From a phage, in the sequence record PZ349761.1: a stretch of 45,774 nucleotides of DNA. One strand, given 5' to 3'. Below the pieces are notes generated by a model that was not told where the DNA came from, searched no databases, and saw only the letters and a program-made list of their open reading frames with translations. Both the position numbers and the translations under genes were made by a program. How positions within the stretch are numbered: position 1 is the stretch's first letter; every line of letters begins with the position of its first letter. This document shows positions 1,003-45,625 of the stretch, piece by piece.

Positions 1003-1532
1003 TGGGGATGTTTGATTTTAACGAAGATAAGCTGACTAATGATGAGATTATGAAGATTTCCATGCGGGATGGACTTCCTCCGCTACGGGTTGCGATCAAT
1101 GCTAATGGATATCGGCAAACTCAACGCCTCTGGGGCAAGCCTGACGCGTCAGAGGTATACATAGATGAAGCGAAGGGCGTTCTGATTAAGCTGATCAGGA
1201 AAATGGCAATGAACGGAAATGGAGTATTGGGGGTGAGGTCTTTATACGAAACCGCACGAAAAGTTAAGCCATTTGAGGGTCGTAATGGAATCATGGTGCG
1301 CATTAAGGACGAGCTCATCCCAGCTCTAGAGGAAATGAATCTAGTTTGCCTCATTGGCGATAAAATTTATGTCCACCCGGCAATCATTGATGAGTATTGG
1401 CAGCCTAACTTCAAAACTTACGAAGGTGAACATGCTAGTAGACTACCATACCACTTGCGGTACAGCGAGGAAGAGGTTGAGGTGGCAATTGAGTTCTATA
1501 GGAAAGCTAAATCACTACTGAATGGTAAATAG
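1002..1532 (+). CDS. truncated paralogue of the 527-aa P-loop protein (N- and C-terminal segments only, ATPase core missing)
   Basis: N-terminus MFDFNEDKL..LPPLRVAINANGYRQ and C-terminal block G..RSLYE.ARKVKPFE..IKD..CLIGDK.Y..P match 42117-43700 (-) but the central ~370 aa with the Walker A motif are absent. Confidence 0.6.
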   Translation: MGMFDFNEDKLTNDEIMKISMRDGLPPLRVAINANGYRQTQRLWGKPDASEVYIDEAKGVLIKLIRKMAMNGNGVLGVRSLYETARKVKPFEGRNGIMVRIKDELIPALEEMNLVCLIGDKIYVHPAIIDEYWQPNFKTYEGEHASRLPYHLRYSEEEVEVAIEFYRKAKSLLNGK

Positions 1533-1546
1533 CACTTTTTGCCTAA
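1529..1546 (+). promoter_or_regulatory. conserved palindromic box (ATAGCACtttttGCCTAA) of promoter cassette
   Basis: TAG stop of 1002-1532 lies inside box; CATAAT at 1567-1572; CATCGAAACGAG at 1578-1589; ATG 1611. Confidence 0.6.
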
Positions 1547-1610
1547 CGCGGTAATGCCATGGATGGCATAATAGCCTCATCGAAACGAGATACGTAAATG
1601 AGGATTTAAA

Positions 1611-1829
1611 ATGAGCAAGGCAATCACACTGCAATGCCTTAAGACAAATAACCCAGAGTTCTTAAAAGGTCACAAATATGTAGCAACTCTGGTAGACGGT
1701 AAAACGTGGGCAGTTAAGGGGGGATTCCAGGATTACAAATTCCCACTCGAGCACATTCCTGGTGGAAATCTTGGTTTTGTTAGTAGCTGCCGCTCGGTTA
1801 AGTTCGTGTTTGAAGTGGTAATGAAATAG
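1611..1829 (+). CDS. hypothetical small protein (72 aa)
   Basis: ORF preceded by cassette promoter and RBS; stop TAG inside next box. Confidence 0.55.
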   Translation: MSKAITLQCLKTNNPEFLKGHKYVATLVDGKTWAVKGGFQDYKFPLEHIPGGNLGFVSSCRSVKFVFEVVMK

Positions 1830-1843
1830 CACGAATTGCTAAA
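1826..1843 (+). promoter_or_regulatory. conserved palindromic box ATAGCACgaattGCTAAA
   Basis: Overlaps TAG stop of 1611-1829; 22-nt spacer, TACGAT, CATCGACAACAACGAGG leader. Confidence 0.6.
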
Positions 1844-1893
1844 CAATGGATCGGGTAGTCGGCTACGATTACCCCATCGACAACAACGAGGAA

Positions 1894-2133
1894 ATGAAGA
1901 TGGAAAACAATTACGAAATGAAAACAGATCGCAAGCTCTTTAAAGACATGGAAGGCGACGACTGCTGGATTGACACGATGACAAATTTCGGAGATGTCAC
2001 TGTCGAGATTGTAATTGACGATGACTCTGGAACCTTTCCCGTGCAAGATGCGGATACCGTACGCGCAATGGGTGAGCACTTAATCAAGATGGCTGACTAC
2101 ATGGAGAGCCAGGGGAAATTAGCTGTAAATTAA
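1894..2133 (+). CDS. hypothetical small protein (MKMEN family, copy 1)
   Basis: Start moved from 1846 to in-frame ATG 1894 because 1846-1893 is occupied by the promoter cassette; N-terminus MKMEN and upstream ACAACGAGGAAATGAAGATGGAAAA duplicated at 2150-2180. Confidence 0.5.
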   Translation: MKMENNYEMKTDRKLFKDMEGDDCWIDTMTNFGDVTVEIVIDDDSGTFPVQDADTVRAMGEHLIKMADYMESQGKLAVN

Positions 2134-2165
2134 TCAAGATTCGCATTATCAATAACAACGAGGAA

Positions 2166-2375
2166 ATGAAGATGGAAAATATTCGTATTGAAGATGTTCA
2201 CTTTGACCAAGCTGAGGTCGGAATCACAAAAAGCGCTCGCGGAGACGTTGTATATCTGGACTTTAATCCGGATGACTACGGGGACGGCCAGATGCTGATG
2301 CACTACAGTCCTGATAAGGCGCGCAAATTGGCGGCAGCATTAATCCTGGCGGCGGACGAGGTGGAGAAGCAATGA
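2166..2375 (+). CDS. hypothetical small protein (MKMEN family, copy 2)
   Basis: Same leader and N-terminus as 1894 gene; tandem paralogue. Confidence 0.5.
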   Translation: MKMENIRIEDVHFDQAEVGITKSARGDVVYLDFNPDDYGDGQMLMHYSPDKARKLAAALILAADEVEKQ

Positions 2376-2632
2376 AACGTTTAATGAAATGCATGACCAT
2401 TATTGCGGCAATGATTGCTCTTACTGGTTGCGAGAAGGCACCAGAGGTTCAGATTCAGTCAGGTGAATTCAATGTGGAGCGTCTATTCACAGTGGATGGA
2501 TGTACCGCCTACAGATTCCGAGATAGCGATAGAGCCATCTACTACACAAATTGCAATGGCAGTACGCAGAGTGAGTACAGGCACGGCAGGGCCATGAAAC
2601 AAGAAACAGTTCAGACAGATCGCACGAATTGA
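2372..2632 (+). CDS. small lipoprotein (signal peptide with lipobox LTGC); possible superinfection-exclusion type protein
   Basis: N-terminus MKRLMKCMTIIAAMIALTGC is a classic lipoprotein signal; 4-nt overlap with upstream gene. Confidence 0.5.
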   Translation: MKRLMKCMTIIAAMIALTGCEKAPEVQIQSGEFNVERLFTVDGCTAYRFRDSDRAIYYTNCNGSTQSEYRHGRAMKQETVQTDRTN

Positions 2633-2815
2633 TAAAGGGGGATTCATCCTGACTGGTATAATCGCCAGCATCAACCACATGAATGGAAGTTAAGTGACGA
2701 TATACGAACATAAATTCAGTAGCAGGGGTATTGATATGCTCCTGCACTATGTAGACGAAAAATACGCAAAGCTCATGCTTAAGACGCATGGCGGCACAAT
2801 AACGAGGGTTGAGAT

Positions 2816-3145: not shown

Positions 3146-3163
3146 ATAGCACGAATTGCTAAA
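3146..3163 (+). promoter_or_regulatory. conserved palindromic box ATAGCACgaattGCTAAA
   Basis: Directly after TAA stop; followed by terminator-like hairpin CCCGC-tcct-GCGGG-TTTT (3164-3180), TATAGT 3184-3189, leader CACCAATCGAGAGG. Confidence 0.6.
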
Positions 3164-3307
3164 CCCGCTCCTGCGGGTTTTGTTATAGTTAGTTCACACC
3201 AATCGAGAGGAAATGGAAATGAAGCAATACCCATCTAGCAATCACCATAACGGTCACATCATGCAGTTCTATCGCCACAATCTGAAGACGAAAGGAGTAT
3301 TTGGAAA

Positions 3308-3499
3308 ATGATTACAATTAACCTTTCAGAAGAAATGGCTGCTGACCTTATTGATTCACTAAGCCTGGTTAAAATTCGATACGGAACTTACCACATGAGC
3401 GAATCAGTAAAGGAAGTGGTAAAGCAAGTTAAGCAGCAGGTCGGAGCTGCCAAAATTGAATTGCAGAACACCCCGTGCGATTTTAATAAAGGTGAATAA
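3308..3499 (+). CDS. hypothetical small protein (MITINLS family, copy 1)
   Basis: ORF; N-terminus MITINLSEE shared with next gene. Confidence 0.5.
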
Positions 3500-3500
3500 G

Positions 3501-3898: not shown

Positions 3899-4032
3899 TT
3901 TACGTTCATACGTATTACACTGGCAAGTTTAACAGCGTTAAGCATGTACGTGTTCACGATACCTACGAGAGCGCAAAGGCTCAATGGTTGGTTCTTGGTG
4001 GTGATATTAATTATTATAAACTTGTTGAATAG
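3895..4032 (+). CDS. hypothetical small protein (45 aa)
   Basis: Short ORF with ATGA overlap; ends in TAG inside box at 4029. Confidence 0.3.
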   Translation: MIYVHTYYTGKFNSVKHVRVHDTYESAKAQWLVLGGDINYYKLVE

Positions 4033-4046
4033 CACTAATTGCTAAA
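4029..4046 (+). promoter_or_regulatory. conserved palindromic box ATAGCACtaattGCTAAA
   Basis: 22-nt spacer with hairpin GGGGTAA..TTACCCC, TATAGT 4067-4072, CATCGAAACGA 4078-4088, ATG 4103. Confidence 0.6.
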
Positions 4047-4102
4047 ACAGTACCGGGGTAATTTGTTATAGTTACCCCATCGAAACGAACGAGGAAGAAG
4101 AA

Positions 4103-4315
4103 ATGAAAATTGAAATTATCTACGTAGACTACAAGACAGAGACTGACATTCTCACACTGCGTGACTGTGGTTTCCAGGTTGGAGATGTAGTTGAAGTATC
4201 TGGCCTATACAAAGGAGGGGATCTTTCAATTCAAGCTATCCGTGAAACCGAGCTTGTGAATGTCGGGGATGAGATCAGTATTAGCGAGCATGAATACAAG
4301 GTGGTGGAAGAATGA
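4103..4315 (+). CDS. hypothetical small protein (70 aa)
   Basis: ORF with cassette promoter and RBS GAGGAAG. Confidence 0.5.
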   Translation: MKIEIIYVDYKTETDILTLRDCGFQVGDVVEVSGLYKGGDLSIQAIRETELVNVGDEISISEHEYKVVEE

Positions 4316-4491: not shown

Positions 4492-4542
4492 CGTGCCTAA
4501 AACGCATTCTAACGAACTATAATTTAAGTAAGGTGATTCATC

Positions 4543-4819: not shown

Positions 4820-4949
4820 ATATGTTATCGCATGTGAACGACTGGTCTTTGATATGAAGACTTTTCACTGGTTCATAATTAAGGATTTAATAAAGCCTTA
4901 TAAGCAAGGCGTTACGCCAGAGACGTTTGTTGAGTCATTCTACAAATAG
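4806..4949 (+). CDS. hypothetical small protein (47 aa)
   Basis: Short ORF ending in TAG inside box at 4946. Confidence 0.3.
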   Translation: MSFTEYVIACERLVFDMKTFHWFIIKDLIKPYKQGVTPETFVESFYK

Positions 4950-4963
4950 CACTAAAAGCTAAA
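4946..4963 (+). promoter_or_regulatory. conserved box variant ATAGCACtaaaaGCTAAA
   Basis: 22-nt spacer, TATAAT 4984-4989, leader CTATCAATACAACGAGAGAG, ATG 5023. Confidence 0.55.
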
Positions 4964-5022
4964 CGCAGTCGCCACGGATGGCATATAATTACCCTATCAA
5001 TACAACGAGAGAGATAAAGCAA

Positions 5023-7164: not shown

Positions 7165-8730
7165 ATGTCTTTAGTGTGGGAAGAAATGACCATTCAGGAA
7201 AAGATGGCTGTCAAAGCGATATCAGAGCATAGCTTCGAGGGTTTTCTGCGCTGCTGGTTCCAAATAACACAAGGTGAGCGATACATCCCTAACTGGCATC
7301 ACAAGTACTTGTGCAGAATCATTGACGAGATTATCGCAGGGGAACGCAAGGACACCATCATTAACATAGCTCCGGGCAGCGGAAAGACGGAAATCACATC
7401 AATTCACTTCCCTGTATACTCTATGTTGAAGCTGAAGAAGGTTCGAAACCTTAATATCTCTTTCGCCGACTCAAACGTAAAGCGCAACTCAAAACGAGTG
7501 CGTGACTTAATATCATCAAAGGAGTTCCAGGAACTCTGGCCTTGCAAGTTCGGGACAAATAAGGATGACGAGATTCAGATCGTTGACGACAGCGGAAAGG
7601 TTAGATTCGAGTCCATATCAGCATCAAAAGGAGGCAGGATTACTGGCACGCGTGGTGGTTATATCACCGACACATACAGCGGCGCGGTAATGCTGGATGA
7701 CTTCGATAAACCAGACGAGATGTTTTCATCCGTATACAGGGCAAAGAGTCACACGCTGCTTGGCAATACCATTCGCTCACGCCGCGCTAGCTCGGTAAAA
7801 GGGAAGGCAACTCCAATTATCCAGATTCAGCAGCGACTTCACGTCAATGACTCAACGTGGTTCATGCTTAGCGGTGGTATGGGCATTGATTTTGATTTGG
7901 TGAAGATACCAGCACTGGTTACTGAAGATTACGTTGATACATTACCTGACTGGATTAAACAGCAATTCATTGATGACGTATTATCAAGCGAAAATATCGA
8001 GCGTGACGGAGTGAAGTATTACAGCTACTTCCCAGGGAAAGAGTCCGTGCATGACCTGGTTGCGATGTGGGATAGTGACCCGTACACATTCCTTAGCCAG
8101 TATCAACAAGAACCTGTAGCATTGGGCGGAAATCTTATTAACGTAGACTGGTTCCAGCGTCTTAGTGATACATTCAGGCCTCCAGTTAAGTATGATTACA
8201 GATTCATCACATGCGATACCGCGATGACTACAAAGAGTTATAGTGACTTCTCTGTACTTCAGTTGTGGGGATACAAGGATGCTAAGATTTACCTGATAGA
8301 CCAGCTCAGAGGAAAATGGGAAGCGCCGGAGTTGGAGGCTGAACTACTGGACTTCGAGAAGAAATCAAGGGCAACCAGTCAATCAGATGGCATACTCCGA
8401 AAGATCATCATCGAGAAGAAAGCCTCTGGTATCGGCCTGATTCAATCGGCAGGTAGAGTTATGCGAACACCGATAGAGCCATACGTTCCGGATAACGACA
8501 AGCTGACTCGCGTAATGAGCGCATTGCCACAGATTAAGGCTGGTAATGTCGTTCTTCCAGAGTCTGCGCCGTGGCTAAACGGATTGCTTACTGAGGTTGC
8601 TGCTTTTACGGCAGATGATAGCCACAAACACGACGACCAGATTGACTGTCTAACAATGGCAGTAAACCTTGTACTTAACATTGCGGACGACCCAAAAGCG
8701 CGACTAATGCGCATAGCGGGAATTAAATAG
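7165..8730 (+). CDS. terminase large subunit
   Basis: 521 aa; P-loop-like APGSGKTE near N-terminus, acidic nuclease-type C-terminal half; canonical position before portal. Confidence 0.85.
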   Translation: MSLVWEEMTIQEKMAVKAISEHSFEGFLRCWFQITQGERYIPNWHHKYLCRIIDEIIAGERKDTIINIAPGSGKTEITSIHFPVYSMLKLKKVRNLNISFADSNVKRNSKRVRDLISSKEFQELWPCKFGTNKDDEIQIVDDSGKVRFESISASKGGRITGTRGGYITDTYSGAVMLDDFDKPDEMFSSVYRAKSHTLLGNTIRSRRASSVKGKATPIIQIQQRLHVNDSTWFMLSGGMGIDFDLVKIPALVTEDYVDTLPDWIKQQFIDDVLSSENIERDGVKYYSYFPGKESVHDLVAMWDSDPYTFLSQYQQEPVALGGNLINVDWFQRLSDTFRPPVKYDYRFITCDTAMTTKSYSDFSVLQLWGYKDAKIYLIDQLRGKWEAPELEAELLDFEKKSRATSQSDGILRKIIIEKKASGIGLIQSAGRVMRTPIEPYVPDNDKLTRVMSALPQIKAGNVVLPESAPWLNGLLTEVAAFTADDSHKHDDQIDCLTMAVNLVLNIADDPKARLMRIAGIK

Positions 8731-8744
8731 CACGAATTGCTAAA
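8727..8744 (+). promoter_or_regulatory. conserved palindromic box ATAGCACgaattGCTAAA
   Basis: TAG stop of terminase gene inside box; TATAGT 8765-8770; leader CACACCAACGAGAGG; ATG 8802. Confidence 0.6.
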
Positions 8745-8801
8745 CGCTAGAGCCACGGATGGCGTATAGTTACTTCACACCAACGAGAGGAGAAAAGACA
8801 A

Positions 8802-9176
8802 ATGAAAAACAAATCAAAGGCTTTATATCTTGGAAACACCTATGACGAGTGTTGTGAATTCACTCCGGGAAGAGAGTACGATTTTTACGATCTTGGTGAT
8901 GGATTTATTGGTCTTTGCGATGATAATGATACTGAACGTTGCATTAAAAACGGAACGTTCTACAAGTTTAAACTAATCAATGAGGATCATTTTGTAACTG
9001 AAACTGAGTGCGCATCCATGCAGCCTGGCGCCGATAAAAAACCCGAGTTTAGATATTACATCAATGGCGAAGTGGTTACTAAGGTAAAGTTCGACGATAC
9101 GCTATTATGCGTCAAGGACTTTGAATCTAGTGGGGTTGATACATCATCAATCAAGTTCGAAGTAAAATTCGAGTAA
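8802..9176 (+). CDS. hypothetical Cys-containing protein (124 aa), moron-like insert between terminase and portal
   Basis: Own cassette promoter upstream and own terminator downstream. Confidence 0.55.
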   Translation: MKNKSKALYLGNTYDECCEFTPGREYDFYDLGDGFIGLCDDNDTERCIKNGTFYKFKLINEDHFVTETECASMQPGADKKPEFRYYINGEVVTKVKFDDTLLCVKDFESSGVDTSSIKFEVKFE

Positions 9177-14733: not shown

Positions 14734-15124
14734 ATTATCATTAGCAGCAAGGAAATTCGTCAACGATTTGTTGGTAAATGAATTTCCGGTCAGATATCCA
14801 GTTGCGTGGGAGAATGCTGCATTCACCCCTCCTGCGGATGGATCAATCTGGCTTAAGTACGACTACACGGAAGTTGATACTGTAACCTACGGATTAAGCA
14901 GGAAGTGCAAATACTACGTAGGCATGGTGCAGATTTCTGTTTTCTTCAGCCCTGGCACTGGAATTGATAGACCCAGACAAATCGCTAATCAATTGGCAGA
15001 ATCTATCGTTGATGGTACAATGCTTGACAGCGGGACCATTTATGAGTCTGGAGTTGTTAACCCGGTTATCAAATCCAAATCTGGGTGGTTTATCCCGGTT
15101 CGTTTTTATGTTCGTCTAGACTAA
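14723..15124 (+). CDS. putative tail terminator-type protein
   Basis: GTG start 9 nt after GGAGGA, overlapping upstream stop. Confidence 0.4.
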   Translation: MQYELSLAARKFVNDLLVNEFPVRYPVAWENAAFTPPADGSIWLKYDYTEVDTVTYGLSRKCKYYVGMVQISVFFSPGTGIDRPRQIANQLAESIVDGTMLDSGTIYESGVVNPVIKSKSGWFIPVRFYVRLD

Positions 15125-15829: not shown

Positions 15830-15847
15830 ATAGCACTTTTTGATAAA
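15830..15847 (+). promoter_or_regulatory. conserved box variant ATAGCACtttttGATAAA
   Basis: 22-nt spacer, TATAGT 15868-15873, CATCGAAACGA 15879-15889, ATG 15907. Confidence 0.55.
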
Positions 15848-15906
15848 GCGCTCATTCAACTTTGATGTATAGTTAACTCATCGAAACGAAATGAGAGATT
15901 AAAGAA

Positions 15907-16155
15907 ATGAATAACGTTAAAAACATCATCAAGATTGCTGCGGTTCTGTTTGCTTTTTATGCGGTAGTTCAGATTATAAACCCAACAGGTGAGGCTGATG
16001 CCAATAGCAAGGCAAACAAATATACTGTTGAATTTGCTAAGGCTGAGCGAGCATGTCAGGAGCTTGTAGGTGGCAAAGTTGACCAAATCATGAAATACGG
16101 CAAAGAGGTTTGTAAGGACTCGGCTGCTAAGATTGCAAAAGAAAACACTAAGTAA
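15907..16155 (+). CDS. small exported/membrane-anchored protein (82 aa), moron-like insert in tail gene cluster
   Basis: N-terminal hydrophobic segment IIKIAAVLFAFYAVVQII; own cassette promoter. Confidence 0.5.
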   Translation: MNNVKNIIKIAAVLFAFYAVVQIINPTGEADANSKANKYTVEFAKAERACQELVGGKVDQIMKYGKEVCKDSAAKIAKENTK

Positions 16156-27047: not shown

Positions 27048-27095
27048 TTTGTATTCCTCATTAAGTTGTTTCGTTTCGATGGAGTAATAGTACAA

Positions 27096-27593
27096 CCGTC
27101 TAGCCTGAATGTCTTTAGCTATTCGTGCTAATGTTTACGCGTAACCGATGTAACTCGATGTATACAATCTCATCCGCGGAAAATGATATACGCACTGTTA
27201 CGCCAACTTACGCATTTGTTACATTAAAATATCTATATATATCAACCTTTTACTCTTATTATTATTATTATATATATTACTGTGTATATCATGTAACTAC
27301 TTCTATAGAGTGTTCCGGTTATAATTTTAATATCATGTGATTTTATACAGTATTGCACGGCAGCTATACCAATGCACCATCAGCAATAAATGATATACAC
27401 GATATACACGCCGGTTACATTGAGCTATAGATGGGCTGAGATGCCAAAAAACGTAACTAATGGCAATGCCTACACGGAATTACAAGGATTTACGCGTAAA
27501 CTTAAATCAACGATTGGCAAAACCAATTGGACTGGCTACGGTGCTGAATATATAGTTACCTCATCGAAATCAAAAAACCAGAGAGATACATAA
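27096..27593. repeat. second AT-rich repeat-laden control region: (TTA)5 at about 27256-27271, TTTACGCGTAAA palindromes (27134-27144, 27489-27500), GATATACAC direct repeat (27400-27418)
   Basis: 27207-27295 is a roughly 85 percent identical direct repeat of 115-200; track ORFs here look spurious. Confidence 0.6.
27114..27132 (-). promoter_or_regulatory. conserved box variant (minus strand reads ATTAGCACgaataGCTAAA)
   Basis: Downstream on minus strand: TACTAT, CCATCGAAACGAAAC (27071-27082), ATG 27047. Confidence 0.55.
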
Positions 27594-29388: not shown

Positions 29389-29406
29389 ATAGCACGAATT
29401 GCTAAA
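29389..29406 (+). promoter_or_regulatory. conserved palindromic box ATAGCACgaattGCTAAA
   Basis: Directly after TAA stop of dam; hairpin GGGGTA..TACCCC, TATGAT 29427-29432, leader CCATAAACAACGAACGAGG, ATG 29462. Confidence 0.6.
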
Positions 29407-29461
29407 GACAAAATTAAAAGGTGGGGTATGATTACCCCATAAACAACGAACGAGGTTAAAG

Positions 29462-30112
29462 ATGCAAATTTCAGAGTCATGCAAATCAATTTTAAACGCG
29501 CTACACACTGCCAAATCGCTATTTGCGAAGGCTGAAAAGTCAAAGCAGAACTCGCACCTTAAGAATAAATACGCTACCTTAGAAGACGTTTTGGCGGCTG
29601 TTGAGCCAGGGCTTGATGAGTGCGGCCTGGTAATGTTCCAGAGCGTTCTTGATGATGAACAAACTAATCGTATGAAGGTTGAGACAAAACTGTTCCACGC
29701 AGAATCTGGAGAATGGGTTAGCTTCTTAATGATAGTCCCAATCAGCAAGAATGATGCACAAGGTTACGGCTCAGCTTTAACATACGCTCGACGTTACGGT
29801 ATTACGGCAGCTTTAGGACTTAGCCAGGCTGATGATGATGGTAATCTTGCAACTAAGGGTGTTAAGGACTTTAAACGAGAGCTTGAGAAGTGCAGCACGC
29901 TCGATGATCTTCGTAACATATGGAAAGAGGCTAAGCAATCACTCGACGCGGCAGGATGGAAGGTTTTCGAACCACATATCATCGAGCGCAAAGCAGAGAT
30001 TGAAGCAAATGCAATGACAGGTTTTAACCCGGCAACACCAAAGAAAGTTGCAGAAAAAAGTAGTGCTGAAGAAAAAGTTGAAGTAGAATCTCAACAAATC
30101 GACACATTCTAA
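29462..30112 (+). CDS. erf: Erf-like single-strand annealing protein
   Basis: N-terminal region with ...KYATLEDVL.AVEP.L.ECGL... pattern; adjacent to SSB and nuclease. Confidence 0.55.
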   Translation: MQISESCKSILNALHTAKSLFAKAEKSKQNSHLKNKYATLEDVLAAVEPGLDECGLVMFQSVLDDEQTNRMKVETKLFHAESGEWVSFLMIVPISKNDAQGYGSALTYARRYGITAALGLSQADDDGNLATKGVKDFKRELEKCSTLDDLRNIWKEAKQSLDAAGWKVFEPHIIERKAEIEANAMTGFNPATPKKVAEKSSAEEKVEVESQQIDTF

Positions 30113-30581: not shown

Positions 30582-30592
30582 TATAAAAGATA

Positions 30593-30615
30593 AGGCCCCT
30601 TTCGGGGCCTTTTTT
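30593..30615. terminator. bidirectional rho-independent terminator between SSB and tail fibre genes
   Basis: AGGCCCC-tttc-GGGGCCT hairpin plus T6. Confidence 0.7.
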
Positions 30616-33222: not shown

Positions 33223-33240
33223 ATAGCACGAATTGCTAAA
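33223..33240 (+). promoter_or_regulatory. conserved palindromic box ATAGCACgaattGCTAAA with no plus-strand gene downstream
   Basis: Lies about 24 nt upstream of the minus-strand tail fibre ATG and lacks the downstream -10 and leader. Confidence 0.5.
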
Positions 33241-33264
33241 GTGGATTGTAGCATCTTTGAGTCA

Positions 33265-34213: not shown

Positions 34214-34268
34214 AGTTACCTCCGCAAACAATAAAGGCACTATACATAATGCACAGTGCCATTGTTTA

Positions 34269-34748
34269 TCAAATCGTGCTGTTTTTCTCTTTCTTCTTCT
34301 GGTTCTCTAATTTAATTTTGCGCCAGGAGCGACATTCAGGCTTTGTGGCTAGTTCAGCCTCAGTAACTACGCGCAGCATGTGACGTTTTTTGCAACGAAG
34401 CGTCAATGGCTTTCCGTTACCGTCGAATTGCAGGTCTGGCCTGCAGAATGTAGCGCGAAAACCTTCTCCATTTCGCTTATAGTAGTTGTGCGAAAGTTGA
34501 GCTCCACGTGCAGAAATCATACCACGCTTAAACCATTCCTCTACAGCCTGTGGCGTTACCTTTAACTGCTTCGCTATATTCGCCTTTGTGCCGAAGAAAT
34601 CAAGAACCATCTCCAGCCGTGCTCGTAAGCCAGCCCTTACTTCATCTTTTAATACGTAGTAGCCTGAAGGTCGTTTACGTTGTTTTTTGTCTTTGGTGCG
34701 GACGGTTCCGTTATTACCGTTAATTGTTCGTTTGTCGACTGAACTCAT
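34269..34748 (-). CDS. putative HTH DNA-binding protein (transcriptional regulator candidate)
   Basis: Basic N-terminus, helix-turn-helix-like IAKQLKVTPQAVEEWFKRG; first gene of minus operon at a divergent control region. Confidence 0.5.
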   Translation of the reverse strand: MSSVDKRTINGNNGTVRTKDKKQRKRPSGYYVLKDEVRAGLRARLEMVLDFFGTKANIAKQLKVTPQAVEEWFKRGMISARGAQLSHNYYKRNGEGFRATFCRPDLQFDGNGKPLTLRCKKRHMLRVVTEAELATKPECRSWRKIKLENQKKKEKNSTI

Positions 34749-34760: not shown

Positions 34761-34778
34761 ATAGCATTTTTTGTTAAA
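34761..34778 (+). promoter_or_regulatory. conserved box variant ATAGCATtttttGTTAAA in divergent control region
   Basis: Between divergent HTH gene and helicase gene; leader CTCAATTAAACGC; ATG 34850. Confidence 0.5.
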
Positions 34779-34849
34779 AGTCATCCTTATTTGATGGTAG
34801 TATTGTACTCAATTAAACGCTACAAGACAATTTTTATAGGAATTTAGAT

Positions 34850-36844: not shown

Positions 36845-37260
36845 AGATTACAGATAAAGAAGATTACATTGAGTTTTACCCTGGTCCGGTTAAGTCATGC
36901 CCTAAAGAGGATGACGAACAAATCTTTTGCTCTGATTGGGTTAAGTATAACTACCCAGATATGGTATTTTTCCATTGCGTGAATGAGGGAAAGAAAACCA
37001 TTGGTCAAGCAAGAAAAGACCAGGCTAAGGGGCTTCTAAAAGGCGTATCAGACTGTATGTTTCTTATTCCTGAATCACTTCGAGGTAAGTATCCTTTCGG
37101 AGCTATAGAGCTAAAGAGGGCTGGCAAAACTCAAGCAAGTCCAGTCAGCGAAGAACAGAAGGCATTCCTGAAAAGTGTAATGGAATCAGGCGGTTTCTCG
37201 GCAGTCGCCTACGGACGCGAGGGTTTTCTGGCAGCATTTAAAGAAATGATTTCAAAATAG
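36841..37260 (+). CDS. VRR-NUC-type nuclease domain protein
   Basis: D..E.K pattern (SDCMF..GAIELKRAGK); ATGA overlap with helicase. Confidence 0.55.
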   Translation: MKITDKEDYIEFYPGPVKSCPKEDDEQIFCSDWVKYNYPDMVFFHCVNEGKKTIGQARKDQAKGLLKGVSDCMFLIPESLRGKYPFGAIELKRAGKTQASPVSEEQKAFLKSVMESGGFSAVAYGREGFLAAFKEMISK

Positions 37261-37274
37261 CACGAATTGCTAAA
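37257..37274 (+). promoter_or_regulatory. conserved palindromic box ATAGCACgaattGCTAAA
   Basis: TAG stop inside box; TATTAT 37295-37300; CATCGAAACGA 37306-37316; ATG 37339. Confidence 0.6.
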
Positions 37275-37338
37275 GACGAATCGGTGAGGTGGTGTATTAT
37301 CACTTCATCGAAACGAAACAGAAAGAGAGAGAAACAAA

Positions 37339-37542
37339 ATGGCTACTATCTACACTGGAAAATTCTACGAATCACGCAAAACTGGTTATATGTATGAACT
37401 GGCAATAACAACAAGCGTTGGATATATACTGATTGATGTTGATGATAAGTCTTACGCATTCGAAGTTAGTCCAACCTACAAAGATGATTTAGAAACTGTT
37501 AAAAACGCATTTGGCGAAAAATTTGATGAGGTGTCAGAATGA
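37339..37542 (+). CDS. hypothetical small protein (67 aa)
   Basis: ORF with cassette promoter. Confidence 0.45.
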   Translation: MATIYTGKFYESRKTGYMYELAITTSVGYILIDVDDKSYAFEVSPTYKDDLETVKNAFGEKFDEVSE

Positions 37543-38115: not shown

Positions 38116-38306
38116 TTAATGCAACTTGTGTAAAAGCAAATGGTTCCTTTACTCTACTTGAAGATTACGAAATTATCTTTAATTCAGATGGTGCAATAAC
38201 AGTATTAAGCGATGATGGATGCTATTGGTTCGTTAGTTATCAAGGTGATGGGTATTACGGGTGTAGAGATTCGAATGGAAAAGAAGTTAGCTTCTTAGTT
38301 GAATAG
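38112..38306 (+). CDS. hypothetical small protein (64 aa)
   Basis: ATGA overlap; stop TAG in box. Confidence 0.45.
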   Translation: MINATCVKANGSFTLLEDYEIIFNSDGAITVLSDDGCYWFVSYQGDGYYGCRDSNGKEVSFLVE

Positions 38307-38320
38307 CACTTTTTGTTAAA
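38303..38320 (+). promoter_or_regulatory. conserved box variant ATAGCACtttttGTTAAA
   Basis: TAG stop inside box; AT-rich -10 about 38341-38347; ATG 38377. Confidence 0.5.
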
Positions 38321-38376
38321 ACTCAAATCCACGTATGGATTATATTAAGCACATCAACAACACATAGGATTAAGAG

Positions 38377-38502
38377 ATGAAAATTGTAGACAGAGAGATG
38401 TTTGAGATCGCACAGATATACGCAAATGATGCTGTAAAAACTGGCTCTTATTATTGCTGGATGTGCGCTAAAGAATACCTGAAAATGGCCTACGGCTTAT
38501 GA
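38377..38502 (+). CDS. hypothetical micro-protein (41 aa)
   Basis: Short ORF with RBS AAGAG; stop overlaps next ATG. Confidence 0.3.
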   Translation: MKIVDREMFEIAQIYANDAVKTGSYYCWMCAKEYLKMAYGL

Positions 38503-39084: not shown

Positions 39085-40215
39085 ATGGCAACCGCAAAAA
39101 TCACCAACGAACAATTGCGCGAAGAGTTAGCAAATGGCATGACCAACAAGGCAATCGCAGAGAAGTACGGAATGAACATTCGCAACGTTGAATTGCGTCG
39201 CAGTAAATTAGCTAAACAAGGCGAAGGGCATGGTCGCGATGTAAGCAACTTAATCCCTCAGGGCTATGCAGTTAAAGGCGTCTCCAGCTTAATTGGTGCT
39301 GATGGCGAGATTAAGCAACAGTGGGTTAAATCAGATATCGACAAGGAGAAGCAAGAAGAGATGATGCTTCAGGCAATTCAGGCCCTAACTGATGAGTTGC
39401 CGCGTGAGAAAGTTAAAGCCTTAAGGGTTGGTTTGTTTGAGGACACTTTAAGCCTTTACCCCGTATTCGACCTTCACATTGGCGCAATGGCTCATCATGC
39501 TGAGTGCGGAGAGAATTATAGCACCGAAATCGCTGAACGAGTCCTTAATGACTACTTTGATTATGCGGTTGCAAAAGCCCCTAACTCAAAGAGGGCTGTA
39601 TTGCTGATTGGTGGTGACTTCCTTCACTCTGACGGAATGGAAGCTGTAACTCCAACGAGTAGACATATTCTTGACCAAGATAGCCGCTATCACAAACTTG
39701 TTTACGTAGCAGTGCGAGCAACTCGCCGAGCAATTAGTAGAATGCTTGATAAGCACGCCGAGGTTGAAGTTCAGATTATCCCAGGAAATCACGATCTCTC
39801 AGGTATGATTTGGCTTCGTGCTGCAATGGCAGCTTTCTATATGGATGAGCCTCGAGTTAGTGTTGATACGTCCCCAGCTGCGCTTCACGTAACGCAATTT
39901 GGGAAGACGCTGCTTGGTTACTGCCATGGGCACGAACTCAAAAAGCCTGATACACGACTATCAGCACTGGCTCGTGACCATCGAAAAGCATTTGGTGAAT
40001 CAGAGTATGTTTACACCCATTCAGGCCACTACCACCATCAAACTATTACGGAAGGAAATCTGGGTATTGATGAATCACACGGCCAGCTTGGAGCGAAAGA
40101 TGCGTACAGTGCTAACGGAGGTTATCGCTCTTACCGACAGGCTTCGGTGATAATTTATAGTCCTGAGTTTGGTGAGATTGGACGATTTACTTGCCGACCT
40201 GAAATGTTTAGTTAA
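39085..40215 (+). CDS. calcineurin-like metallophosphoesterase with N-terminal HTH-like domain
   Basis: Ordered motifs DLHIG, GGDFLHSDG, PGNHDL, CHGHE, HSGHYHH match the metallophosphatase signature; N-terminus has helix-turn-helix-like NKAIAEKYGMNIRNV. Confidence 0.6.
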   Translation: MATAKITNEQLREELANGMTNKAIAEKYGMNIRNVELRRSKLAKQGEGHGRDVSNLIPQGYAVKGVSSLIGADGEIKQQWVKSDIDKEKQEEMMLQAIQALTDELPREKVKALRVGLFEDTLSLYPVFDLHIGAMAHHAECGENYSTEIAERVLNDYFDYAVAKAPNSKRAVLLIGGDFLHSDGMEAVTPTSRHILDQDSRYHKLVYVAVRATRRAISRMLDKHAEVEVQIIPGNHDLSGMIWLRAAMAAFYMDEPRVSVDTSPAALHVTQFGKTLLGYCHGHELKKPDTRLSALARDHRKAFGESEYVYTHSGHYHHQTITEGNLGIDESHGQLGAKDAYSANGGYRSYRQASVIIYSPEFGEIGRFTCRPEMFS

Positions 40216-40232
40216 TAGCACTTTTTGCCTAA
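40215..40232 (+). promoter_or_regulatory. conserved box variant ATAGCACtttttGCCTAA
   Basis: Directly after TAA stop; hairpin ATGCCGCA-gaaa-TGCGGCAT, CATAAT 40253-40258, CATCGAAACGAG 40264-40275, ATG 40300. Confidence 0.6.
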
Positions 40233-40299
40233 CGCATGCCGCAGAAATGCGGCATAATTACCACATCGAAACGAGATGAACTAAACGAGGAAACACAAA

Positions 40300-40476
40300 A
40301 TGACTAAAATGATTTATTGCACCAAGAACAACTCCAAGACACTGCCATTTACAGTTAACCAACCGTACAATGCAGAGTACCAGGGTGACGGATACTACAA
40401 GATTTACGGCGACGATATGACGTGGATTTTAGCGCCGATTGATGGTTCGCTGGTTGAATTTATTATCGCAGACTAG
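40300..40476 (+). CDS. hypothetical small protein (58 aa)
   Basis: Short ORF with cassette promoter and RBS ACGAGG; read by eye. Confidence 0.4.
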   Translation: MTKMIYCTKNNSKTLPFTVNQPYNAEYQGDGYYKIYGDDMTWILAPIDGSLVEFIIAD

Positions 40477-41309: not shown

Positions 41310-41674
41310 TAGTGTGCGTAGCTTTATCTGGATGTTCGGCAACTGATGCACTGACTGGATTGATTGGAAGCAAGCCGGAAGTTACAGCTCAGGTCGGGGC
41401 TGAGAACAACAAGGTTGGCGTTGGGTTAACGAATAAGGTCGATTCCAGCAGCTCCAGTGAAGCCACGGTTAAAGATTCTAAAGTTGGGTCACTTGATAGC
41501 TCAAGCGGGAAAAAGACTGCTGACAACTCTATTAAGGCATCTACAATCACTGCCGAAAAGATTGAGATTACCAACAACGACTCATCCGCGCCTCCATGGA
41601 TTGTAATGGGAGCTATGGGGTTGCTGTTTTTTGTTCCACTTACCGCAATCTTAAGACGCAAAAAAGCCTCCTAA
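41285..41674 (+). CDS. unimolecular spanin (N-terminal lipoprotein signal plus C-terminal TMD)
   Basis: Lipobox LSGC after signal peptide; C-terminal WIVMGAMGLLFFVPLTAIL then RRKKAS; last gene of lysis cassette. Confidence 0.65.
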   Translation: MFKWIAALVVCVALSGCSATDALTGLIGSKPEVTAQVGAENNKVGVGLTNKVDSSSSSEATVKDSKVGSLDSSSGKKTADNSIKASTITAEKIEITNNDSSAPPWIVMGAMGLLFFVPLTAILRRKKAS

Positions 41675-41690
41675 TGGAGGCTATATTTTT
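41661..41690. terminator. bidirectional terminator between lysis cassette and minus-strand genes
   Basis: GCCTCC-taat-GGAGGC hairpin flanked by A-run and T-run. Confidence 0.65.
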
Positions 41691-42024: not shown

Positions 42025-42116
42025 AATTAACTCCTGAGCACTGCCAAAACAAATAGAAGCATCGAAATTGTTACAACAAAACCAAGTATTATCAGTAGTA
42101 TCGATTCAATCATAAA

Positions 42117-43700
42117 TCACCCCAGCAATCTCGGATTAATGTAAACTTTATCACCAATCAGGCACGTATAGTTTTTCTCATCAAGCATTGGCAGTAAGTG
42201 ATCTTTAATCTTCGTCATCACTCCAGCCTGAGCCTCGAACGGCTTAACCTTTCGCGCCGCTTCATACAGTGAACGAATACCAACTACGCCTTTACCGTTC
42301 TTACCTTGCTTGATTAGTATATCAATCAACTTGTTCATCTCGGCATTGTCTCCAGCGTGACCGGCGGCGTTAGCGGATGACAGGTAAGTCTTGCTAAGTT
42401 CCTGGAAGATAATGACGGCTTCTTGCATCGTATCTAACTCAATTTCTCTCGACTTCTGCGGACTACCACCGTTAGGGTTGAACCAGTTACGCACAGTGTG
42501 AAGTACCGCTGCAATCCTTATTGCCTGTTTATCAAACTTACCCAAAGCGCCGCGCAACATTGTGTGTGAATACTTTCCTCCGTCAGCAAGGTGAGGCTCC
42601 ATCTCCTGGCGTGCTCGGTTGAGATATTTCATTGCAGAGTTACTCACTGTCAGCTTAACATCTTGCTCATTCATTATTTCGTGAACCAAGCGGAAGTAGT
42701 CAGCCTTCAGGCCACCATCAATTGGCTCGTATGTTGAATCTCCATTCTCATCAACAAAAACACGCTCACCCAGGAATGACTTCTCGCGTACAAGCAGAAA
42801 ACGTTCCGACACGCCGATTCCACGAGCGCCCGCGTTCATGATCGCATTTATTGTTTCATCCTGCGCAATTACCGAGATGCAACCCATAGCAACGAAGCTC
42901 ATGTTGTTCTCTGCGTTTGCACGCGCGATAGATACGTTACCCGCATCCCATGCCTTCAGTACAAGCTCGCTGTTCGTTTTCTTTGAGCCATCACCATAGG
43001 TCATGCCCAGAAGTGAGTTCACGCTCGTTGCCTCGTCAGAGATAACAGCGAAGTTTCCCTGGCGATTGTTGATTCTGGCTAGACCTTCAGGTGTTGTATC
43101 GGACACGGGGAATACTATGTCACAAAGTTTCTCTAGCTTTTCCTCAAGTTCCTCTTTCTCCTCAAAAAGTGAGGCCATCTCTGATGGTGACTTTTCCTGC
43201 TTCATCTCCTTGGATAATGCAGATAGTTTAGCCATTATTTTCTTGCGCTCGCGCTTTCGCACTTCATTAAGCCGCTCAGTCTCAGCGATCATTGGAGCAA
43301 TAGAAAGTGAGTTGATTGCTGATTTACCAGTCGATGGCGGCTGGCTTGTTACGACGTACAGCGAGGTTGGTTGCTGAGTCCCGTGATATTCAACAGTAAA
43401 TCGTCCAAGCATGGCGGCAGAAATACACCCCAGAAAGTGCATGTATGCGGATGACTCTGGAAACTGGACCGAACGAGCAATATTGGCTGAAAGTTTGCCA
43501 ACAACATCAATATCATTACCGAGTGAGATTACTGGATACTTGTCATTTGCCGCATCAATCTCGACAGGAGCTTTCCAGAATGATTGAGACTGACGATAGC
43601 CATTAGCATTAATAGCCACTCGCAGGGGTGGGAGGTTGTCTGCGGCAGCAATTGCCATAACCTGTTCAACAGATAGTTTATCTTCGTTGAAATCAAACAT
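42117..43700 (-). CDS. P-loop NTPase of unknown function (full-length paralogue of 1002-1532)
   Basis: Walker A-like PPSTGKS; N- and C-terminal segments shared with the 176-aa protein at 1002-1532. Confidence 0.6.
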   Translation of the reverse strand: MFDFNEDKLSVEQVMAIAAADNLPPLRVAINANGYRQSQSFWKAPVEIDAANDKYPVISLGNDIDVVGKLSANIARSVQFPESSAYMHFLGCISAAMLGRFTVEYHGTQQPTSLYVVTSQPPSTGKSAINSLSIAPMIAETERLNEVRKRERKKIMAKLSALSKEMKQEKSPSEMASLFEEKEELEEKLEKLCDIVFPVSDTTPEGLARINNRQGNFAVISDEATSVNSLLGMTYGDGSKKTNSELVLKAWDAGNVSIARANAENNMSFVAMGCISVIAQDETINAIMNAGARGIGVSERFLLVREKSFLGERVFVDENGDSTYEPIDGGLKADYFRLVHEIMNEQDVKLTVSNSAMKYLNRARQEMEPHLADGGKYSHTMLRGALGKFDKQAIRIAAVLHTVRNWFNPNGGSPQKSREIELDTMQEAVIIFQELSKTYLSSANAAGHAGDNAEMNKLIDILIKQGKNGKGVVGIRSLYEAARKVKPFEAQAGVMTKIKDHLLPMLDEKNYTCLIGDKVYINPRLLG

Positions 43701-43756
43701 TACTTCTCTCCGTGTTGTTTCTGAGCGGCCATTATAACAACGACCGCTTATAAAGC

Positions 43757-43774
43757 ATTATCAATTTGTGCTAT
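43757..43774 (-). promoter_or_regulatory. conserved box variant (minus strand reads ATAGCACaaattGATAAT)
   Basis: Follows TAA stop of upstream micro-ORF; about 20-nt spacer then TATAAT (plus 43731-43736); ATG of P-loop gene at 43700. Confidence 0.5.
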
Positions 43775-43890: not shown

Positions 43891-44126
43891 TTTTTAATCT
43901 CCATTTCCACAATTTCATAACTTATGTAATTATTTATCATTCCAATAAGTGATTTTGGGTATGTCTTCATATGCTTCTTGGCGGAATCTTCATCAAGATG
44001 TGCTGATATGTTGTGAAAATTGTATTCATAATCCATGCCAATTAGTATGTATATCTTATCGTGAGCATTAATGAAGTTATTTGATTTTATTTCCCCAAGC
44101 GACCAGTCCTTTCCTTTTCTAATCAT
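43887..44126 (-). CDS. hypothetical small protein (79 aa)
   Basis: ORF from track. Confidence 0.45.
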   Translation of the reverse strand: MIRKGKDWSLGEIKSNNFINAHDKIYILIGMDYEYNFHNISAHLDEDSAKKHMKTYPKSLIGMINNYISYEIVEMEIKK

Positions 44127-44476
44127 TTGTATTGAGCCTCAAAGCGATAGTCGCCGCAAACTGTAACAAAGCCAACATCTTCGTCGCGATATAGCTGCCA
44201 TGCGCTGCCATCTTTATCGTAAATGTACCCAGCGCGCTTACCAAGTCCAGCATGGAGATCTACTTGATATCTCTTCCCTTCAGTGAAGTATTTACGAATG
44301 GATGAGCGATGATTAACCTTTGTGCAGTAAATGGTCTTGGTCTTGATATATTTGCCGCGCTCTTCCAGATTAATCCATTTACCATATTTCTTGATTTGCT
44401 CTACGCTATCTTTTACTCTGGCTTTGTATAATACGTTTTCGTTGCTGATCCAGTTTTTGGTAATCGTAGTGGTCAT
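44123..44476 (-). CDS. hypothetical protein (117 aa)
   Basis: ORF preceded on minus strand by cassette (leader CTCATAGAAACGAAAC). Confidence 0.5.
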   Translation of the reverse strand: MTTTITKNWISNENVLYKARVKDSVEQIKKYGKWINLEERGKYIKTKTIYCTKVNHRSSIRKYFTEGKRYQVDLHAGLGKRAGYIYDKDGSAWQLYRDEDVGFVTVCGDYRFEAQYK

Positions 44477-44538
44477 TTTGCTTTCCTTTGTGTGTTTCGT
44501 TTCTATGAGCTGAATATACAGTAGAAGCCCAGAAGGGC

Positions 44539-44557
44539 TTTAGCAATTAGTGCTATT
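44539..44557 (-). promoter_or_regulatory. conserved palindromic box (minus strand reads AATAGCACtaattGCTAAA)
   Basis: Upstream ORF 44540-44791 reads through the box and stops at the TAA of GCTAAA; hairpin AAGCCC-ttct-GGGCTT follows. Confidence 0.55.
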
Positions 44558-44791
44558 TATTGCCTTTCGCCCAAGTGGTGTTATCGCTACCTTATACCAA
44601 GTTCCAATTTCTGGATTATTTACATTATATGCCAGATCTACATAGCCTAGCCGAAATAGTTTTGGTATACACCTGGATGAATTGCCTGAGTCTCGAATCC
44701 TGCCTCGATTAAAGTCATAGCTTATTTGATGAATCTCTCCATTATGAATGCGGTGGAGGGTTTTTATTGCGGATTCAGAAATTTTAATCAT
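44540..44791 (-). CDS. hypothetical small protein (83 aa)
   Basis: ORF from track; C-terminal 5 codons encoded by the box. Confidence 0.45.
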   Translation of the reverse strand: MIKISESAIKTLHRIHNGEIHQISYDFNRGRIRDSGNSSRCIPKLFRLGYVDLAYNVNNPEIGTWYKVAITPLGRKAINSTNC

Positions 44792-44958
44792 TTACTTTCA
44801 CCGTTAATATTATTTGCTTTTTCTATCGCCTTGAGCATAATTTCATGACTCTCAAGCAAGTCTTCGCGGAACCAATCACCGCAAGGCCAACCCTTACCGC
44901 TGTAGGCGCTTATGACCTCAAGATCGAAATAATTTATCTCAGATGGCAGTAGCATCAT
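44788..44958 (-). CDS. hypothetical small protein (56 aa)
   Basis: Short ORF with overlapping start/stop on both sides; read by eye. Confidence 0.35.
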   Translation of the reverse strand: MMLLPSEINYFDLEVISAYSGKGWPCGDWFREDLLESHEIMLKAIEKANNINGESK

Positions 44959-45194
44959 TTCACCTCGTCAAAAGTTGCAATCCCAGGAATAAACATCCCA
45001 ACCTTCCAGCCTGCAATGGCAATCCATCCAGAATCGTGCTTATGCGGTCGCTCAGCGCCATTAATAACCCACTCGTTCGGGATTACCTTGCCGTTAATGA
45101 TTAGCGGCTCAGCGTCGTATACAGAGCCTTTTACGAATGGTGTAAGAACCTTTTTGTCGGTGCTTGTAATAACGTTAGTGCAGCGAATTTTCAT
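44955..45194 (-). CDS. hypothetical small protein (79 aa)
   Basis: ORF from track. Confidence 0.45.
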   Translation of the reverse strand: MKIRCTNVITSTDKKVLTPFVKGSVYDAEPLIINGKVIPNEWVINGAERPHKHDSGWIAIAGWKVGMFIPGIATFDEVK

Positions 45195-45364
45195 TCTACC
45201 ACCTCAAACTCACCATGGTGAATAACAAGCGGCTTAGATGTGCCATCCATTATTACAACCCTTCCATCTCCGCAATCCATGAGCACATCGTGAACTTCGC
45301 CAATCTCAATGCCGTAATAATCTGGCGTGTAAATCGTGTCAAACTTAACAATCTTAATTTTCAT
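45191..45364 (-). CDS. hypothetical small protein (57 aa)
   Basis: ATGA overlap; RBS GAGG; read by eye. Confidence 0.35.
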   Translation of the reverse strand: MKIKIVKFDTIYTPDYYGIEIGEVHDVLMDCGDGRVVIMDGTSKPLVIHHGEFEVVE

Positions 45365-45374
45365 TTCTCAATCC

Positions 45375-45554
45375 TCAAATAAATGGCAGACATTCGGCGC
45401 AGCCAAGTCCATCGCAGCACAGGAATTCATCTTCTGACTGGAGTTGCTTGGCTAAGTCTATATCCAACTTTCCGCGCAACACAAAGTTAGTGTAATCTTC
45501 GTTAAGCCCAATCAGTGCGCATTCGTGGCGTAACTCATCTTTATCAATCTTCAT
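45375..45554 (-). CDS. small Cys-rich protein (59 aa)
   Basis: ORF directly downstream of minus-strand cassette; CCDGLGCAEC cluster. Confidence 0.4.
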   Translation of the reverse strand: MKIDKDELRHECALIGLNEDYTNFVLRGKLDIDLAKQLQSEDEFLCCDGLGCAECLPFI

Positions 45555-45607
45555 ATCTATCTCCTCGTTTTGATGAGTTAACTATATCCTCCATGACCAC
45601 TAATGTC

Positions 45608-45625
45608 TTTAGCAAAAAGTGCTAT
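45608..45625 (-). promoter_or_regulatory. conserved palindromic box (minus strand reads ATAGCACtttttGCTAAA)
   Basis: Minus strand downstream: TATAGT, CATCAAAACGAGGAG, ATG 45554. Confidence 0.55.

Follow-up and report, generated by a model that had tools for sequence, protein, structure and literature searches.

T1, one of the seven classic T phages, and the T1-like phages (Drexlerviridae) carry a short repeated sequence at gene junctions, here called the box. Its copies are described below in one genome of the family, sequence record PZ349761.1, whose whole stretch of 45,774 nucleotides was analysed and is referred to as the window; it is an Rtp-like Drexlerviridae coliphage, the nearest record being that of Escherichia phage SU57, with 88% identity. 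In the genome paper of phage Rtp, by Wietzorrek et al. in 2006, ten inverted repeats were reportedly presented as possible sites for the Rtp52 protein, which its authors are said to have proposed as the reader of the repeats. In phage TLS, a 21-nt direct repeat, aaATAGCACnnnTTGnTAAAA, was found at 18 intergenic sites, where it points along transcription about 76 nt before start codons, and similar repeats were stated to occur in T1, Rtp and Rogue1 (German et al. 2024, PMC11447400). Just three sigma70-like intergenic promoters were found in TLS by the same authors, who suggested that the repeats are stoperators, enhancer sites or UP elements, and listed their function among the open questions for T1-like phages (PMC11447400).

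A second described system, on the side of the host, is the marbox, 5'-GCAHWWWWTGYYAAA-3', which MarA binds as a monomer, so that the complex is oriented (Kettles et al.). Site positions are given, without a curated sequence set for a weight matrix, in the supplements of PMC12052159. The same sequences are bound by the host proteins MarA, SoxS and Rob, of which Rob binds DNA tighter than the other two. At class II promoters the sites lie in forward orientation, overlap the -35 region, cluster near -41 and are followed by a canonical -10, the mean -35 match of the Salmonella class II promoters being 1.9/6. In the cryo-electron microscopy complex of RamA at micF the site lies at about -41, with the pattern CACT-7X-AAA, and the fumC marbox is listed at -39 in a published map. 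A longer marbox consensus, AYnGCACnnWnnRYYAAAY (also AYnGCACnnWnnRYYAAAYn), is reportedly due to Martin et al., in 1999.

The box of the window is the same element as the TLS repeat and, reportedly, as the Rtp inverted repeats; a fixed -10 and the identity with the marbox are absent from both descriptions. These are the new points: judged from sequence, the published repeat of T1-like phages appears to be a marbox placed at a fixed distance from a -10. The searchable literature yielded no paper in which marboxes are connected with T1-like phages. An earlier note on the same DNA, in which the architecture was taken to be undescribed, has to be corrected on two counts, as the box had already been published and matches a known site in class II geometry.

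The pattern ATAGCAC-N5-GCTAAA, allowing up to 2 mismatches, was scanned over the whole window, and 100 dinucleotide-preserving shuffles were used as control. The 20 matches obtained, against 1.5 expected, were not equalled in any of the 100 shuffles. A match at 10815, which is intragenic, was discarded as due to chance; the remaining 19 are real copies, corresponding to 18 complete cassettes and one orphan box (Table 1). All 17 positions listed in the earlier note are among them, together with two further copies, at 2619 on the plus strand and 34265 on the minus strand, both belonging to cassettes. All but one of the 19 boxes read toward a -10 and a downstream gene. When GCAHWWWWTGYYAAA was searched with at most one mismatch, 17 sites were obtained in the window, against 1.5 expected, and these sites are the phage boxes; the longer consensus, AYNGCACNNWNNRYYAAAY, gave 16 matches against 1.0 expected.

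Base preferences were derived from a set of 94 boxes, collected from the window, Rtp, T1, Klebsiella phage Sweeny (Webervirus) and Pantoea phage AAS23 (Sauletekiovirus). Positions G4, C5, A6 and A17, and the motifs GCAC and AAA, are invariant in this set; positions 9-10 are occupied by A or T only, and position 14 behaves as Y (C48/T16/A5). Every constrained position of the marbox is satisfied by the phage consensus, and degeneracy in the marbox is matched by degeneracy at the same positions in the phages. The left half shows no variation, the right half has degenerate bases at positions 14-15, and conservation runs asymmetrically into AAA(A). The palindrome TAGCA-N5-TGCTA, which had previously been regarded as the core, is mostly a by-product of the marbox consensus (GCA...TGY), as indicated by this asymmetry and by the invariant G4 facing a Y at its partner position 14.

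By aligning the flanks of the boxes, the order box, spacer, -10-like hexamer, leader and Shine-Dalgarno sequence, already proposed for the window, was recovered. Counted from the end of the 18-bp box, the hexamer starts at exactly 20 nt in 71 of the 94 cases, 21 nt in 6 and 19 nt in 5, with all other offsets at background level; the same distances, measured from the 20-mer, are 18 nt (71/94), 19 nt (6) and 17 nt (5). The spacer of 20-22 nt, mostly 22, reported earlier is thus to be read as 20 nt after GCTAAA, and the value of 22 is right only when counted from TTGCTA. The consensus of the hexamer is TATAGT/TATAAT. Among the 71 cassettes with 20-nt spacing, a G is found at -14 in 54, and the base 7 nt after the hexamer is A in 61 and follows a C in 50, CA being the usual start-site dinucleotide; in the window, an A occupies the putative +1 in 15 of the 18 cassettes. 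The putative start of transcription is accordingly this conserved A, 7 nt past the hexamer, and the centre of the box would fall at -40.5, in support of the class II activator position, near -42, assigned to it earlier. The TTGCTA within the box had been rejected as a -35, and rightly: the spacer implied would be 22 bp, and the mean -35 match of the window cassettes, scored at 17-bp spacing, is 1.28/6.

For comparison, the micF, sodA, fumC and mar promoters were read from E. coli K-12, and the orientation convention was checked on mar (reverse) and micF (forward). In micF, 18 nt separate ACAGCACTGAATGTCAAAAC from TAGAAT, and another 7 nt separate this hexamer from the first base of MicF; in sodA, ACGGCATTGATAATCATTTT is followed by 18 nt and TATAAT; in fumC, ATGGCACGAAAGACCAAACA is followed by 17 nt and AATAAT. 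The mar site, ATGCCACGTTTTGCTAAATC, lies in reverse orientation, as expected for class I, and differs at two positions from ATAGCACGTTTTGCTAAA, a variant found in phage Sweeny. Since 20 nt counted from the 18-bp box and 18 nt counted from the 20-bp marbox lead to the same point, the phage layout is the same as that of the host class II promoters. With micF, fumC and sodA, as with E. coli and Salmonella class II promoters at large, the cassettes share the consensus, the forward orientation, a distance of 17-19 bp to the -10 and a centre at about -40, and both groups have a canonical -10 and no -35. In sequence and in geometry the cassette is a class II marbox promoter, a statement made with more confidence than the mechanism proposed below. 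The phage sites differ from those of the host in belonging to a virulent phage, in numbering about 18 per 46-kb genome and in being all near consensus, whereas the host marboxes are degenerate; further peculiarities of the cassettes are the stop codon of the upstream gene within the box, the spacer hairpin with compensatory variation and the shared leader. In the host, the fumC marbox comes directly after the terminator hairpin of fumA, a junction that resembles the terminator-plus-marbox junctions of the phage.

The proposed mechanism is as follows. MarA, SoxS and Rob (RamA in Klebsiella), which are AraC-family monomers, would recognize the box as an asymmetric site of about 20 bp, lying in place of the -35, reading along transcription and separated by 18 bp from a good -10 downstream. 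Once bound, the activator would be centred near -40, contact region 4 of sigma70 and an alpha C-terminal domain, and recruit the host RNA polymerase. The messenger would begin at the conserved A with a short A/C-rich leader, followed by the Shine-Dalgarno sequence. About 18 such promoters would head nearly every transcription unit, and the phage would thus rely on a host stress activator for promoter recognition, Rob being the most plausible one, with MarA and SoxS adding to it under stress.

The choice of a host activator, probably Rob with MarA and SoxS, is favoured by the specificity shared by the three proteins together with the tighter binding of Rob, a protein that is constitutive and abundant. 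No homologue of MarA was detected by phmmer among the six-frame open reading frames (ORFs) of the five genomes (best E = 1.1), and no AraC/HTH_18 domain was matched by Pfam in the 24 window ORFs scanned. Canonical sigma70 promoters are not enriched in the window, where 11 were counted against 21.3 expected between 1 and 10000, and 41 against 43.1 between 26000 and 45774; the cassettes are therefore probably the main promoters. The low count agrees with the three promoters of TLS (PMC11447400). The best canonical match, TTGATA-17-TATTAT with a TG, lies at 412-440, before the first gene at the left end. On balance, a genome-wide set of class II marbox promoters activated by host Rob, MarA or SoxS is regarded as the probable mechanism, by a modest degree. 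That T1-like phages run almost their whole transcription programme through these proteins is put forward tentatively, as something that may well turn out otherwise.

The same cassette is found in T1, Rtp, Klebsiella phage Sweeny, Pantoea phage AAS23, Vc1 and Motto; by genus or lineage, five others of the Drexlerviridae retain the arrangement without change. Boxes are kept at orthologous junctions, before the helicase, erf and primase genes and after the VRR-NUC and phosphoesterase genes, in all these genomes, so that the loss of the box at such places, which the earlier note would have taken as evidence against its proposal, is not what is seen.

Several observations weigh against activation by the host proteins. 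Vc1 was deposited as a Vibrio cholerae phage and Motto as a Pseudomonas aeruginosa phage, and both keep the cassettes. MarA and SoxS are not known outside the enterics. One must doubt the recorded hosts or suppose that a different factor reads the cassette there and, if the hosts are genuine and devoid of MarA, SoxS and Rob, another protein must be needed there; as both phages retain the cassette, host range does not discriminate between the explanations, and becomes a caveat. The genomes of Vc1 and Motto have 44-45% G+C and carry marbox cassettes of enteric type. Rob is largely aggregated and inactive in unstressed cells, and the activation exerted by RamA and MarA on host promoters, 2-4 fold, is modest for a virulent phage. 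No start-site map, transcriptome or binding data for any Drexlerviridae were found in the searchable literature. Moreover, A3 and T11 of the box are conserved beyond what the marbox consensus demands, which leaves room for a second reader, and a gene for a Cro-like protein adjoins a box in every genome examined.

This last gene supplies the rival that survives best, according to which the box is the operator of the phage Cro-type helix-turn-helix (HTH) protein encoded at 34269-34748, bound as a dimer to TAGCA-N5-TGCTA and acting as a class II activator or as a temporal repressor. Its counterpart in Rtp, rtp52, is syntenic and annotated as an HTH regulator; the gene is present in 825 Drexlerviridae records, a box always lies beside it and is the sole conserved element of its upstream region (across five genera, in the case of the box of cassette 12, between the divergent Cro-like and helicase genes), and the half-sites, 10 bp apart, fit an HTH dimer. 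The extra conservation of A3 and T11 would also be explained. The protein gives a weak P22-Cro/YdaS match and a weak match to P22 Cro in PDB; its predicted structure (predicted local distance difference test, pLDDT, 88.7) weakly matches Cro/CI domains only, with a core like those of Xfaso-1 and N15 Cro. The fold is Cro-like, with a single HTH, as opposed to the dual HTH of MarA, and the protein is thus not a mimic of the latter. Its second HTH helix, predicted to be the one that recognizes DNA, varies more than any other segment in the 30 homologues aligned, reading VTPQAVEEWFK in the window and VCCVRLTNAYRL in Vc1, yet the boxes are identical; a variable helix facing an identical box makes this protein an unlikely reader. 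In addition, the conservation of the half-sites is asymmetric and extends past the dyad into AAA(A), and chance would have to account both for the strict single orientation of the boxes and for their position-for-position match to the marbox. The protein had been named as a candidate binder in the earlier note, an assignment now considered unlikely, and the same applies to the other candidate, the HTH-phosphoesterase at 39085-40215, whose GerE match is at noise level. In the Cro-type protein, a motif near the N-terminus, DKRxxNGNNGxxRxxDxxxR...EVxAxL (residues 4-43), is invariant in the 30 homologues and far more conserved than the HTH, and may be the functional core; the first 20 residues are predicted with low confidence.

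Both proteins might use the box, Rob, MarA or SoxS activating the cassettes and the Cro-like protein competing for the boxes later, to shut them down or retime them. Such a scheme, which is held to be rather improbable, would combine the evidence for the two models, and the predicted leader of the Cro-like gene contains the box at 34761, downstream of a candidate promoter (TTGTCT-17-TACAAT, 34830-34802, minus strand), a position that would provide autoregulation. The variability of the recognition helix is an objection here too, and no sequence feature was found that separates early from late cassettes.

The options raised by the TLS authors dispense with an activator, the box being either an UP-like or enhancer element for the alpha subunit of RNA polymerase, or a roadblock of stoperator type. 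The box is A/T-rich around -40 and, like the stoperators of phage L5, it is intergenic and orientation-specific; its invariant GCAC and TGC, however, are not UP-like, and a rigid 20-nt distance to the -10 is not expected of roadblocks. The phages are virulent, and neither a repressor nor a lysogeny module turned up among the annotated or scanned genes. Explanations of this kind are given a very small chance.

The box could finally act as RNA, in the form of a 5-bp stem with a pentaloop, like lambda boxB, which at the 3' end of the upstream message would recruit an antitermination or processing factor, upstream of the hairpin in the spacer. UAGCA-N5-UGCUA can pair, GTTAAA variants of GCTAAA retain a G-U pair, and a hairpin follows the box in most copies; but the stem is broken in GATAAA and GCCTAA variants, whose invariant left arm offers no compensating change, the boxes at 27114 (minus) and 34761 (plus) head divergent units without an upstream message, and the fixed spacing is to the -10 and not to the hairpin. 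The boxB-like hairpin was rejected on the first two of these grounds and is scarcely credible. A sigma54 promoter (TGGCAC-N5-TTGCW) is dismissed because the box has AG-N8-GC instead of the GG and GC, 10 bp apart and with a start about 12 bp past the GC, of such promoters, its spacing being 2 bp short, and because a sigma70-type -10 sits 20 nt downstream of the box.

Other phages are known to replace the -35 by a specific site. The T4 MotA box is centred at -30, 11-13 bp from the -10, and is used through sigma appropriation by MotA and AsiA. T4 middle promoters and the cassettes both have a TGCT-containing box that replaces the -35 upstream of a normal -10; the phage TGCT, however, lies 22 bp from it, and a MotA-type promoter was excluded, as TGCTAAA is 20-22 nt from the -10 and 11-13 bp are needed. 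No MotA- or AsiA-like Pfam match was obtained among the 24 window ORFs scanned. The middle and late promoters of phage Mu, also without a -35, are activated by Mor and C, which from a site overlapping about -43 recruit the host sigma70 RNA polymerase. Mor and C are phage-encoded dimers acting on dyads, whereas here the site is a host marbox of monomer type and no such phage protein was found. The PeSLs of T4-type phages, reportedly described by Arbiol et al. in 2010, are likewise short repeated promoter-plus-hairpin cassettes between small accessory genes, but are said to use ordinary sigma70 early promoters.

The marbox reading makes the function of the TLS repeat, stated as an open question, directly testable with existing strains and proteins. 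Should it be true, a family of virulent phages would employ a host activator of multidrug resistance and oxidative stress responses as a general promoter-specificity factor, and the efficiency of infection would be tied to the responses of the host to antibiotics, oxidants and bile salts. By losing rob, marA and soxS, hosts would have a way to become resistant, and salicylate, paraquat, dipyridyl or bile salts would alter the phage yield, with a bearing on phage-antibiotic combinations, on infection in the bile-rich gut and on the control of T1 contamination in fermenters. The genome would also provide a set of about 18 compact, near-consensus promoters responsive to MarA, SoxS and Rob.

Table 1. 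Marbox cassettes, orphan marbox and Cro-type gene of the window. Marbox coordinates refer to the 20-mer; the +1 is the putative start site.
Feature	Position	Strand	Marbox	-10 hexamer	Putative +1	Gene or context
Cassette 1	1529-1579	+	1529-1548	CATAAT 1567-1572	A1579	gene 1611-1829
Cassette 2	1826-1876	+	1826-1845, 0 mismatches to AYNGCACNNWNNRYYAAAYN	TACGAT 1864-1869	A1876	
Cassette 3	2619-2669	+	ATCGCACGAATTGATAAAGG	TATAAT 2657-2662		newly located
Cassette 4	3146-3196	+	3146-3165	TATAGT 3184-3189	A3196	30-aa peptide gene 3219-3311
Cassette 5	4029-4079	+	4029-4048	TATAGT 4067-4072	A4079	gene 4103-4315
Cassette 6	4946-4996	+	4946-4965, 0 mismatches	TATAAT 4984-4989	A4996	
Cassette 7	8727-8777	+		TATAGT 8765-8770	A8777	gene 8802-9176; stop codon of large terminase gene (ORF end 8730) inside marbox
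Cassette 8	15830-15880	+		TATAGT 15868-15873	A15880	gene 15907-16155; comes after major tail gene and its terminator
Cassette 9	27080-27131	-	27112-27131	TACTAT 27087-27092 (19 bp from 20-mer)	A27080	serves lipoprotein gene ending at 26802
Cassette 10	29389-29439	+		TATGAT 29427-29432	A29439	Erf-like gene 29462-30112
Orphan marbox	33223-33242	+	33223-33242	none at right distance		between minus-strand tail-fibre and primase genes
Cassette 11	34232-34282	-	ACAGCACGATTTGATAAACA	TATAGT 34239-34244		primase gene; marbox within 3' end of gene 34269-34748; newly located
Cro-type HTH protein	34269-34748	-				orthologue of Rtp52 and T1 gp23; rival candidate binder
Cassette 12	34761-34810	+	ATAGCATTTTTTGTTAAAAG	TAGTAT 34798-34803		region of divergent Cro-like and helicase genes
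Cassette 13	37257-37307	+		TATTAT 37295-37300	A37307	gene 37339-37542
Cassette 14	38303-38353	+		TATATT 38341-38346	A38353	gene 38377-38502
Cassette 15	40215-40265	+		CATAAT 40253-40258	A40265	gene 40300-40476 and lysis genes; after phosphoesterase gene
Cassette 16	43724-43774	-	ATAGCACAAATTGATAAT, weaker	TATAAT 43731-43736		helicase-like gene 42117-43700
Cassette 17	44506-44556	-	44537-44556	TATATT 44513-44518	A44506	TAA of GCTAAA is stop codon of gene 44540-44791
Cassette 18	45574-45625	-	45606-45625	TATAGT 45581-45586 (19 bp from 20-mer)	A45574	gene 45375-45554

The stop codon of the upstream gene lies within or against the box at about 12 junctions, as had been noticed before, with ORF ends at 1532, 1829, 2632, 3145, 4032, 4949, 8730, 29388, 37260, 38306, 40215 and 44540. 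On the other side of the -10, the leader begins at the putative +1 with AUCGAAACGA... and extends for 17-40 nt, being A/C-rich and followed by the Shine-Dalgarno sequence. The leader sequence CATCGAAACGA occurs unchanged in 6 cassettes and with a single mismatch in 2 others, the remainder showing the looser CAYCRAAAC; that the leader is conserved across genera may be due to its function as well as to copying among cassettes. In some leaders the first bases of the transcript are able to pair with the Shine-Dalgarno region, as at 1574-1606 (CCUCAU...AUGAGG, box 1529) and 15875-15896 (CUCAU cgaaacgaa AUGAG, box 15830), and such pairing might limit the initiation of translation.

The inverted repeats noticed earlier in the spacers are real. 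Folding of the stretch that begins where the box ends and closes shortly after the -10, compared with shuffled sequence, gave a mean z of -2.65 over 82 cassettes, 61% of which were below -2. In 50 of the 82 cassettes the arms flank the -10 and are followed by AUCGAAAC, as exemplified by cassette 5, where GGGGTAATT and AGTTACCCC lie on either side of it. In these the arm sequences vary among copies while the pairing is kept (GGGGTAA/TTACCCC, AAGGCCA/TGGCCTT, AGCGGTC/GGCCGCT). In another 21 the hairpin ends before (12) or overlaps (9) the T-rich -10 and resembles an intrinsic terminator; several hairpins were marked as terminators by the T1 annotators. The spacer of cassette 4 is a terminator-like hairpin (cccgc tcct gcggg tttt), and the hairpin of cassette 15 is GCCGCA gaaa TGCGGC. 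These structures would act on read-through RNA from the upstream gene, as terminators when placed before a T-rich -10 and otherwise as 3' stabilisers, and probably end or stabilise the upstream transcripts. The idea that each small gene is a terminator-promoter unit is borne out in part, many units pairing a hairpin with a promoter; the terminator-like form is seen in the 21, and the hairpin spans the -10 in the 50.

The segments of homology with several relatives start within a few bases of boxes, at window positions 1824, 2634 and 3143. The ends of the BLAST segments against Rtp fall inside cassettes in 4 cases against 1.8 expected, a weak hint that the cassettes serve as joints for the exchange of small genes.

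Directly behind cassette 4, the 30-aa ORF at 3219-3311, on the plus strand, is identical to rtp6 of Rtp, whose annotation gives a similarity to Stp, the T4 protein that activates the PrrC anticodon nuclease of the host. The orphan marbox at 33223-33242 overlaps the start region of the tail-fibre gene in reverse orientation, and is kept in Rtp (33762) and T1 (34902). Two boxes in the late operon of T1, at 15069-15086 and 18833-18850 on the minus strand, are oriented against the structural genes and lie just upstream of the major head and tail-chaperone genes; with the minus-strand hexamers TATACA and TAAGAT 20 nt downstream, they may be antisense promoters. Strong bidirectional terminator hairpins are present in the window at convergent gene blocks, at 30592-30611 and 41665-41682.

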